From positions 88,428-152,427 of the IMG/VR virus record IMGVR_UViG_2595698455_000001: a DNA stretch of 64,000 nucleotides; one strand, given 5' to 3'. The stretch is from a virus. Its lineage: Duplodnaviria > Caudoviricetes. The notes under the pieces were generated by a model, which was not told the DNA's origin, made no database searches, and was given only the letters and a program-made list of their open reading frames with translations. Positions 39,319 through 41,892 of this stretch are shown here, one piece after another; the first letter of the stretch is position 1, and each line of letters begins with the position of its first letter. The translations under genes and the position numbers were made by a program.

Positions 39319-39880
39319 CACTGCTGTCACCAAACACATCATTCCTTTATTAGAAAAATATGAAGGGAAGAAATTAAACGATATTCCGTTCCAACAGATA
39401 GCGGAAGAAATTAAACGGCTGACAAAGAAAGAAGCCAATTTCCACCGTGTTCTTTCATCTGGGGTTGAACTCGCGAAATCGGATCTTCGTAATGCTTCCA
39501 CGTTCTCTTTCAACATTGTCGCAACTTCGAATTTGGTGTCCGAGTTAACTCGATCATCACAAGTCCGTCGTGATCGTTTCCGCCATTTATGTGTACCAAA
39601 CAATAATGAGGTAACGCGTGTTGGTATCAAACTGGAAGCAATACGCTCTGAAGTATGCTTCACAGTGAATTATATTCTGGAGCCGGAAACCCAACATGTT
39701 TATTTCGCGGCCGTCATTGGTTTCTACGGCACCTCAATCAATGGCTGGGCCGACCGGGTTGAATTAAAAGAGACGCTGAACAAACATAGCACCCCTTCCA
39801 CCCATTATATGTCACGCGAAGCCGCGCTCGAATATGTGTATCTACTCGAGCGCGATGTGAAGTTAAAAGTGTTTAAATAA
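39308..39880 (+). CDS. Hypothetical protein
   Basis: 190-aa ORF. Confidence 0.7.
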   Translation: MHINTAVTKHIIPLLEKYEGKKLNDIPFQQIAEEIKRLTKKEANFHRVLSSGVELAKSDLRNASTFSFNIVATSNLVSELTRSSQVRRDRFRHLCVPNNNEVTRVGIKLEAIRSEVCFTVNYILEPETQHVYFAAVIGFYGTSINGWADRVELKETLNKHSTPSTHYMSREAALEYVYLLERDVKLKVFK

Positions 39881-39993
39881 CGCTTTTGTCAATAAAGAAT
39901 CGTAGTAAATTTGTATGCACGGGGGGGTTATCCTAGTCTCGTAAGGTGATGCTCCTAACATTCAACAACTATCTTAACTAAGAGGACACAAAT

Positions 39994-40152
39994 ATGAAAA
40001 CTAAGAAATTGGTACTCAAACAAAAAACTGGTATGACTGCTTTTCCAGTAATTAAGCACATGCAGACCACTAACGTTTGCCCAACTTGCGGGCGGAGAGA
40101 CAACGACGGTGGCCCTATGTGTATGAAGACTTTTTGTGATGGGGGTAATTGA
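39994..40152 (+). CDS. Small Cys-containing protein (52 aa)
   Basis: Manual ORF, GAGGA RBS; CPTC..C...C. Confidence 0.5.
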   Translation: MKTKKLVLKQKTGMTAFPVIKHMQTTNVCPTCGRRDNDGGPMCMKTFCDGGN

Positions 40153-40302
40153 TCAAACAACACAGAAATAGAGATTTGGGAGAAATCCCATTGTGGAGGT
40201 TATGAATTAACTTGATTCATTATCTCACTATTTCTTGCCGGAAATAAGTATGATCAACGAGGAGAGGGCACGGTCTGTACCCTCTCCAAAATTTAAAGTT
40301 TT

Positions 40303-40328
40303 GTCAATAAATGGTAACAAAGTATAGT
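40303..40328 (+). promoter_or_regulatory. TCAAT-N14-TATAxT promoter ahead of the RNA island
   Basis: GTCAAT 40303-08, TATAGT 40323-28. Confidence 0.6.
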
Positions 40329-40334
40329 TAACCC

Positions 40335-41067
40335 ACTGAACGAAAGCTGTTAGGGTACTTGACAAACACTTGAGATTGAAGTTGTATATGATATATACCA
40401 GTTCAATTTTGTAACGCTCTCCACCCCAACAACGGTTTCCGTGGGCAGGGTGTGTTATCCGAAGGCATAGAGAGTCAATGCCGAGGCCGTCCGATGGCGC
40501 GTAAACGGGGTTAACCTGATCCCTCGATAAACCACGGATAAAACAGTGTCGTTACCTCGGCGTTAAGAGGAGCCTGGGTGAAGTGTTACTCTACGTTGGC
40601 GGGGCTATCAACCCCAATCTTGCCTCCGAGTGATACCAACCAAGCCTAGTTTGGTCCGAGCGTTAGAGGACAAGTAACTGAGAATAACCAGTTGCGAGTT
40701 GCAGCTTCGGTTGCAACTTTGATGGACTTGGAAACAGGTTTATGAAAGTTGTATCCAACCCGATCTTGCAAGCCCGTATCCCTGTATGGTCAAGACTTGC
40801 AAGTGGAAAGCCCTGGAAAAATAAACGCCTGTTGTGAGGCTATAGTGCGAGCCAATGACCAACAGAAGCGCGTTGCCGTGAGGCGCACAAAGAGGCCTGC
40901 ATGAACTGATCATGCACAAACGGGATAGAGGGTTGACAGTCCTTGGTTGGATGCACAATAGATTATGGGGCGATAGTTTAAGGGATAGCCGTCCGGACGG
41001 TAATTCCCCAGAGAGAACAGCTGGAGGCCAATCCAGCAGGTGAGGTGAAAAGCCTCAGACCCCGCCA
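40335..41067 (+). ncRNA. Large structured non-coding RNA, family unassigned; 5' end estimated from the promoter
   Basis: No credible ORF; many stems, cUUCGg and GAAA tetraloops, long-range pairs, ends GCCA. Confidence 0.7.
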
Positions 41068-41072
41068 ATTCA

Positions 41073-41261
41073 GTTCCCGTTGTATGGCAGTATCTCTGAA
41101 GCTCTTTCACCCGTGCAGATTGAGGCTGTAAGGTTAAATGAAGAGATAGGCTTGGATACAGGCGAACGTGAAGGTAGACATCTGAGTACCGGACTGCACG
41201 GACTGGGGAAGGTTGTTGAGAATAACGGAAGTTGGGGGTTCGACTCCCTCAGGGAACGCCA
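41073..41261 (+). ncRNA. 189-nt tRNA-like RNA
   Basis: GTTCCC/GGGAAC+GCCA acceptor, GGGGG-TTCGACT-CCCTC T-arm, oversized core. Confidence 0.75.
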
Positions 41262-41379
41262 AATATTGTTGGACTGCCAACATGCTCTGGTCTACGGCAG
41301 GCGAGATGGGATCGCGGGATTGAAATACCGCCTCGGGAGCACCTAAATAAACCAGTTGTTCAATAAACAATTGGTGAGT

Positions 41380-41565
41380 ATGATGAAATCATTCAGTGAT
41401 TATCTCAATGAATGTAACGACGAGCCGATGGTTGAGTTCGTCGAAAAGCGCGGTGACAAGTGGGTTGTTCTTGACCACACTAAGACGAAGGTTCTTGGTA
41501 CACATGACACCAAAGCTGGCGCTGATTCCCAATTAAAGGCGATCGAAGCGAATAAGTACGAATAA
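41380..41565 (+). CDS. Small protein with capsid-targeting-like leader
   Basis: MKSFSDYLNE leader; CTAAATA at 41343. Confidence 0.7.
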   Translation: MMKSFSDYLNECNDEPMVEFVEKRGDKWVVLDHTKTKVLGTHDTKAGADSQLKAIEANKYE

Positions 41566-41566
41566 A

Positions 41567-41643
41567 GATGGTGTAGTTCAGTTGGTTAGAACGTGCGACT
41601 CATAATCGCTTTGTCACTGGTTCAAGTCCTGCCGCCATCGCCA
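41567..41643 (+). tRNA. tRNA with CAT anticodon (Met or Ile2)
   Basis: Cloverleaf, GCGA-CTCATAA-TCGC anticodon arm, GGTTCAAGT, CCA end; T-stem imperfect. Confidence 0.88.
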
Positions 41644-41650
41644 GAATTAT

Positions 41651-41781
41651 GTCGGGTCTTACAGGATGAAATAGAGATCCTGTTTTGATGTACAAGGAAG
41701 CATATTATTCAAAGTGAACATATGATAGCTTTGAAGAAATGCAAACTAAAGATTAGGGTTTGAATCCCTCGCCCGACGGCA
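41651..41781 (+). ncRNA. 131-nt tRNA-like RNA, possibly degenerate
   Basis: GTCGGGT/GCCCGAC acceptor, AGGG-TTTGAAT-CCCT T-arm-like, ends GGCA. Confidence 0.6.
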
Positions 41782-41787
41782 AATAAT

Positions 41788-41892
41788 GGGTGTGAAACGA
41801 AAGCAAGTAAGCACGAAGTAAGCCAGCGACAGTCCTGTGTGACAGCTCCAGAGCCGAACGGAATCTGAACCCGACGAAAGTAACACCCACCA
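41788..41892 (+). ncRNA. 105-nt ACCA-terminated RNA
   Basis: GGGTGT/ACACCC terminal stem plus ACCA. Confidence 0.55.

Follow-up and report, generated by a model that had tools for sequence, protein, structure and literature searches.

Structured RNAs of unassigned function have precedents in phage tRNA clusters. In bacteriophage T4, rnaC and rnaD (the species 1 and species 2 stable RNAs), which are 119–139 nt long, are annotated within the tRNA cluster; to our knowledge, no function has been attributed to either. The same cluster also holds the homing endonuclease gene segB (PMC2330249). The much larger ROOL and GOLLD RNAs (>500–800 nt) occur near tRNA islands and, as reported in a preprint, form covarying intermolecular kissing loops; one GOLLD example lies downstream of tRNA-Met (bioRxiv 10.1101/2024.12.08.627333). 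Candidates for further classes have come from a survey of IMG/VR that assembled 10,006 candidate viral RNAs with covariation in intergenic regions, some of them tRNA-like (Fremin et al., 2023; PMC10690425).

The locus described here lies in a 64,000-nt stretch of DNA (the window) taken from a virus record of 152,427 bp; DNA and protein matches identify the source as an Ackermannviridae-type (Vi01-like) phage with kin in Kuttervirus, Agtrevirus, and Taipeivirus. A preliminary description of the window had proposed an ornate noncoding RNA of about 730 nt at 40335–41067, belonging to the GOLLD or ROOL classes or to a new class of large RNA in an enterobacterial-type phage. The part of this proposal that stood is a new class of structured RNA near tRNAs in an enterobacterial-type phage; the single 730-nt unit, closed by a helix between 40596 and 41060, did not. 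What is conserved is a compact core of about 206 nt, which resembles ROOL and GOLLD in being phage-encoded, multi-helical, and adjacent to tRNA genes. Both show covariation in loops: that of ROOL and GOLLD reflects loop-loop contacts between copies, according to the preprint cited above, whereas for the self-complementary loop of the core an oligomer is a prediction. The core is, however, far smaller than the >~500 nt of those families, even with its 5′ hairpins (~280 nt) and more so in its minimal form (125 nt), and it resides in virulent phages of Proteobacteria. Like T4 rnaC and rnaD, it is a structured RNA within a phage tRNA cluster that includes a homing endonuclease gene; a search of T4 at 70.6–72.7 kb with our covariance model of the core (R1; filters off) gave at best 6.5 bits, so rnaC and rnaD are not homologous to it, and the likeness of rnaC, in its tRNA-like 3′ end, is to module E of the window (see below), not to the core.

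Comparison with Rfam 15, covering the whole window at the gathering score and 39800–41800 at E up to 10, recovered only the tRNA (RF00005) at 41567; the placement among GOLLD or ROOL thus fell away, as did the other families that had been named for comparison (OLE, tmRNA, and RNase P). Homologues from Vibrio and Serratia phages likewise matched nothing but tRNA in Rfam 15, and neither they nor the window matched GOLLD, ROOL, OLE, or raiA. ARAGORN with default settings found no tmRNA, giving only implausible permuted calls at a 70% threshold, and neither ARAGORN nor RF00005 drew a cloverleaf on the core; modules D and E have tRNA-like 3′ parts only. Group I and group II introns were set aside because there was no Rfam match, and the RNA is closed by its own helix P1 and lies between genes. 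In RNase P RNAs, GGAAAG comes after a hairpin, and a CAGAAG motif is also present. Both features can be seen by eye in the core, together with a tRNA context, but its topology differs from that of RNase P RNA, and the long-range helix P4 of the latter could not be drawn by eye. On the strength of these comparisons, the core is a new family of compact phage RNA that matches no described one. A literature search returned no description of it, although one Klebsiella phage paper has an unnamed "one ncRNA"; the main text of the IMG/VR survey has no mention of Ackermannviridae or Salmonella phage, and its catalogue tables may list the motif (PMC10690425).

A mosaic region between two small genes

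The segment 40300–41300 was matched by 259 of 50,697 phage records. The neighbouring 190-aa protein has at most 80.5% identity to any record, and a search for related loci with that protein returned a single one. No open reading frame with family support, PHROG comparison included, lies between a 52-aa frame (39994–40152) and a 69-aa frame (41356–41565); the frame at 41080–41346, which overlies module E, matches no PHROG. With module borders drawn by BLAST against eight relatives (Table 1), the supposed 730-nt unit is best explained as a mosaic of promoter and leader, unique insert, structured RNA, and two separate tRNA-like modules. A promoter scan found a σ70-like sequence, TTGTCA-16-TATAGT, at 40301–40328 (10 of 12 matches), which would place the transcription start near 40335. 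The segment 40372–40640 that follows has no homologue in phages, in E. coli genomes, or in the two patterns searched in IMG/VR, and its fold z-score is −1.16.

Table 1. Coordinates of the modules, helices, and loops in and around the core RNA (positions are those of the window).
Feature	Position	Strand	Remark
Module A (promoter and leader region)	40288..40371	+	conserved at 82–91% (L001–L004, L007, L008)
Window-specific segment, ~265 nt	40372..40634 (to 40640)	+	holds the 5′ helices of the preliminary description
Helix GTAAC / GTTAC	40411-15 / 40585-89	+	present in sequence
Helix TCCGTGG / CCACGGA	40438-44 / 40532-38	+	present in sequence
9-bp helix TTGGCGGGG / CCCCGCCAA	40596-604 / 41060-68	+	present in sequence
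Local hairpin GGGGCTATCAACCCC	40601-40615	+	recurs in L049
Module B, 5′ hairpin array	40654..40746 (BLAST block ~40635-40742)	+	alignment A4, 11 relatives
Ph2	40654-57 / 40668-71	+	89.5% paired, none compensated
Ph3	40676-80 / 40689-93	+	88.6% paired, 3 compensated
Pa	40697-40705 / 40710-18	+	100% paired, 2 compensated
P0, GAAA loop	40719-30 / 40735-46	+	97.9% paired, 6 compensated
Core RNA, ~206 nt	40750..40955 (BLAST block 40742-40960)	+	covariation, model R1
P1	40750-60 / 40945-55	+	closes core; 11-bp helix with one G-U, TGTATCCAACC / GGTTGGATGCA, present in sequence
P2	40765-72 / 40796-40803	+	carries invariant 23-nt loop
Invariant P2 loop CCCGTATCCC-TGTA-TGGTCAAGA	40773..40795	+	enteric to Vibrio phages, L046, L047
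P3	40812-15 / 40921-24	+	encloses variable P4–P8 domain
P4	40824-28 / 40870-74	+	
P5	40829-33 / 40861-65	+	
P6	40838-41 / 40850-53	+	
P7	40875-77 / 40882-84	+	GNRA loop GTGA in window
P8	40898-40904 / 40910-16	+	
P9	40929-32 / 40941-44	+	
Module D	40962..41070	+	separate conserved structured unit
Module E, tRNA-like RNA ~190 nt	41069..41262	+	discrete block in at least 7 records
tRNA, anticodon CAT	41567..41643	+	Rfam RF00005, ARAGORN

All of the helices that had been quoted in the preliminary description can be found in the sequence. Taken alone they are unremarkable: the whole region folds with a z-score of −2.1 on the plus strand and −1.9 on the minus strand, and 40335–41068 contains two perfect complementary 9-mers against a shuffle mean of 0.89, with 23% of 300 dinucleotide shuffles containing at least two. 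It is comparison with relatives that separates the real helices from the accidental ones. The helix between 40750 and 40945 proved to be the closing helix P1 of the conserved RNA, 4 of its 11 pairs changing on both sides among 23 sequences; TGCATGA..TCATGCA is helix P8, whose closing pair covaries between UA and CG. Two further hairpins, AGTTGCAGC-TTCG-GTTGCAACT and GGACTTG-GAAA-CAGGTTT, are helix Pa and part of helix P0 of module B, and both are retained with compensation in the 11 relatives of alignment A4. The hairpin TGAGG..CCTCA falls in module D. The choice of the plus strand was also right, as shown by the many G-U pairs and by a U-G pair that all 23 sequences share.

Module B is accessory to the family and outside its definition, because it is missing in Serratia phages, Vibrio phages, and the uncultured lineage L047. 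Where it is present, Ph3, Pa, and P0 covary and P0, which abuts P1, stacks on it, so the supported RNA extends over ~40676–40955 (~280 nt), or perhaps from 40654. The P0 of the window is the shortest, with a GAAA cap at the point where relatives have an insert of 50–70 nt. A hairpin drawn at 40636–53 was dropped (36% paired in A4). Other elements stand upstream of the core where module B does not: in Serratia phage phiMAM1 (L005, ~1840–1990), an unannotated tRNA-like 3′ end (GGAGG-TTCGAAT-CCTC..., CCA) occurs ~8 nt before the core, which is thereby flanked on both sides by tRNA-type elements, and Vibrio phages (L030, 6910–6950; L036, 765–795) have a hairpin that covaries and whose 12-nt loop (TTCGTTGTTAAT) is conserved.

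Downstream of the core, the arrangement varies. The tRNA(CAT) gene of the window is displaced, lying 600 nt from the core, and in relatives it follows the core: among 23 distinct enteric sequences, a tRNA(CAT) or tRNA-like gene comes next in 9 and module D in 3 (the window counted), and the remainder have an HNH endonuclease gene or other inserts between the core and module D or tRNA. Module D is ~105 nt long, is conserved at 91% identity across 11 sequences, and has three covarying hairpins; it begins like a tRNA with GGGGCGATAG, ends in CCCC-G-CCA, and is found before or after tRNA(CAT) in relatives. Module E has a 5′ GTTCCCG, a T arm GGGGG-TTCGACT-CCCTC, and an acceptor AGGGAAC-G-CCA; four sequences of it share 96% identity, and its GNRA hairpin is re-formed in phage May. 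In Mutine, KpS110, and Marshall (L007, 2201–2656; L008, 2235–2648; L023), HNH homing endonuclease genes sit exactly between the core and tRNA(CAT), recalling segB of the T4 cluster. In Vi01 (L003, 1724–1829), the core and module D are set apart by an insert of ~110 nt bounded by long inverted sequences (CATATTGCTGTGGGTA...TACCCACAGCAATATG). An RNA-library contig (X20) that joins 41068 to 41267 represents a relative without module E, and a further contig (X1) is identical to the window.

Fold and distribution of the core RNA

The core was aligned over 23 distinct sequences (A2) with a structure of 55 pairs in 10 helices and A-rich junctions. In this alignment, 99.1% of cells hold a pair, and both partners have changed in 15 of the 55 pairs, a covariation reached by none of 500 column shuffles; control structures with partners slid by 1–3 columns gave 0–1 such pairs. 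P7 is capped by a GNRA tetraloop in every sequence (GUGA, GCGA, GUAA, or GCAA). In an alignment of 19 sequences that takes in distant members, 38 of the 55 pairs change on both sides, including 9 of 11 in P1 and 6 of 7 in P8, although these figures come from a model-fitted alignment and lean towards the model. The core is noncoding because its alignment contains frame-breaking gaps of 1 and 2 nt and a 16-nt duplication in Klebsiella phage cp21.

R1 scores the window at 265.8 bits (40743–40964) and finds one copy each in the genome of the window, Vi01, and Vibrio phage 1.255.O. No copy was found in Bue1, which has only tRNA-Lys, or in CAU_YEP3, which has no tRNA; both are members of the phage family that lack tRNA(CAU) as well as the core. 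Full-length matches in Vibrio phages (K474, 31.8 bits; 1.255.O, 20.4 bits; K471/D504, 14.2 bits) belong to Ackermannviridae whose marker protein is only 25–26% identical, and by eye P1, P2, P3, P8, and P9 re-form there with different letters, P3 alone appearing as CCUG/CGGG, CUGG/CCAG, GAUC/GAUC, and GAAC/GUUC.

A pattern built on the invariant-loop motif selected six metagenome contigs, of which R1 supports four: two of enteric type (L049 and L044), an AT-rich new lineage in which P1 is weak (L047, 46.9 bits), and a minimal 125-nt form without P4–P8 (L046, 24.7 bits). The family is defined by the frame P1-P2-P3-P9, by the loop AUCCC-NNUN-UGGUYAAG, and by GAMAAAUAA at a distance of 21 nt downstream; the window has all of these, with the same motif spacing as in the two Vibrio loci L030 and L036. 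Matches of the pattern in L043, L045, L048, L050, and L052 found no support from R1. Comparison of these sequences shows how the core folds, which strand it is on, and that it occurs once per genome; it also shows that the core is conserved across Ackermannviridae of enterobacteria and of Vibrio and in two lineages that are uncultured. With one genome per prokaryote species searched, the motif appeared only in a phage-like scaffold of 526 bp (L051) from a Flavobacterium poyangense assembly, positions 1–100 of which hold an enteric-type core fragment (103 bits) that is probably phage contamination.

The P2 loop (consensus C-G-W-AUCCC-NNUN-UGGUYAAG) is the most conserved element. At its centre in the window, TGTA (40783–86) is self-complementary, and among the variants found at this position (UGUA, GGUC, GAUC, UAUA, AAUU, and GUUC) five of six, all but GUUC, are self-complementary, with the outer positions always Watson-Crick complementary (U-A, G-C, or A-U). 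These outer positions, columns 41 and 44 of the alignment, covary perfectly and are each other's top partners (mutual information 0.93), and they have switched state at least four times on a tree from which both were left out. Because they are 3 nt apart, pairing inside a single hairpin is impossible, and the self-complementarity of five of the six variants hints at a kissing contact between two copies; the same short distance means that short recombination tracts could mimic part of the signal. No convincing pseudoknot partner of the loop was found: pairings of UAUCCC with GGGAUA, of UGGUYA with UGACC, and of GUCAA with UUGAC in the loop of P9 were considered by eye and show no covariation. 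The duplication in cp21 (L006, ~2040–2075) is a tandem one, inside this otherwise invariant loop.

Linkage of the core to the tRNA cluster is evidently old. The core ends 1–2 nt before tRNA(CAU) in K474 and K471/D504 and ~8 nt before it in many enteric phages; in 1.255.O, 35 nt separate it from a downstream tRNA-Gly, with tRNA-Met next in line, and in L049 a tRNA or tRNA-like gene comes directly after it. Among E. coli genes, those labelled tRNA-Ile are the best match to the tRNA(CAU) found in relatives (77.9% over the full length; e.g., L004 2901–2977), so this tRNA is probably a lysidine-dependent decoder of AUA.

Competing explanations and significance

On balance, it is probable that 40676–40955 on the plus strand encodes a structured noncoding RNA outside Rfam that is co-transcribed with the phage tRNAs, processed, and active in trans as a stable RNA. 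Rightward transcription would start at the promoter at 40301–40328, and the RNA would be released by tRNA-processing enzymes, as are the T4 stable RNAs; since tRNA(CAU) starts 1–8 nt after the core in relatives, RNase P would make its 3′ end. Once released, it may act in the way that the T4 species 1 and 2 RNAs and ROOL and GOLLD are thought to. More speculatively, the invariant P2 loop could serve as the working surface, and its self-complementary tetranucleotide could join two copies through a kissing loop. The bolder proposal of an undescribed class of phage RNA that is coupled to an AUA-decoding tRNA(CAU), self-associates, and acts on tRNA or translation during infection is doubtful as a whole; if true, the core would be a small relative in kind of the ROOL and GOLLD assemblies, built on a palindromic kissing loop.

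That 40335–41067 is instead one functional unit closed by long-range helices, as first proposed, we consider highly improbable. Its parts probably do share a primary transcript, because no terminator-like site occurs on the plus strand before 42114, and the minimum-free-energy fold uses the helix 40596/41060; however, the upstream partner of this helix (GGCGGGG) is absent from 22 of 22 relatives, the helix is within chance by the shuffles, and CCCCGCC on the other side is kept in 14 of the 22 as the end of module D. GGGG at 40601–04 also belongs to the competing local hairpin that L049 retains, in L004, L009, L014, and L015 a tRNA intervenes between core and module D, and the segment 40372–40640, as noted, is without homologues. 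A region composed of decayed tRNA genes and spacer hairpins without a function of their own might be read from the tRNA-like modules D and E and from weak tRNAs called by relaxed ARAGORN at 40645–40732 and 41187–41257, and it is possible for parts of 40372–40634; for the core it is contradicted by the lack of a cloverleaf and by a fold kept through compensatory changes across phages as divergent as their marker proteins indicate, which leaves it scarcely credible for the region.

Two other readings accept the conserved fold and assign it a different role. A leader that controls the downstream gene, riboswitch-like or through processing or translation, would account for the aptamer-like closing of the RNA by P1 with invariant junctions, for its position just upstream of a tRNA in many phages, and for L047, where the RNA fills the intergenic region and ends 10–15 nt before a ribosome-binding site and ATG. 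In the L047 fold, however, P1 leaves the ribosome-binding site uncovered, no terminator or anti-terminator was found, and the downstream neighbour changes from phage to phage (tRNA(CAU), tRNA-Gly, an HNH gene, module D, other inserts, or an unrelated open reading frame), so a leader is unlikely. It is very unlikely that the polycistronic tRNA transcript is processed by the core acting as a catalytic RNA, self-cleaving or of another kind: the compact fold, the invariant loop and junction nucleotides, the 125-nt variant in L046, and the abutment of the core on the tRNA 5′ end fit such an activity, but the 5′ ends of tRNAs are already produced by the RNase P of the host, no Rfam ribozyme family matches, and no cleavage site can be inferred. 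The trans-acting stable RNA accordingly remains our preferred reading.

Carriers of the core include Vi01-, CBA120-, and Det7-type phages and the Klebsiella phages of Taipeivirus, which are among the most sequenced phages and those most used for therapy and biocontrol; in such phages this conserved gene is unannotated or hidden under small "hypothetical protein" calls, and R1 is now available for annotating it. Because the core is compact, strongly covarying, and easily transcribed, it suits structure determination, and it offers a tractable genetic case for the long-open question of why structured RNAs are kept beside phage tRNA genes. Annotations as "hypothetical protein" overlap the core at L004 2641–2841, L030 7005–7124, and L036 888–1013 and are probably spurious, and the phage tRNA(CAT) is probably misnamed "tRNA-Met" in many records.
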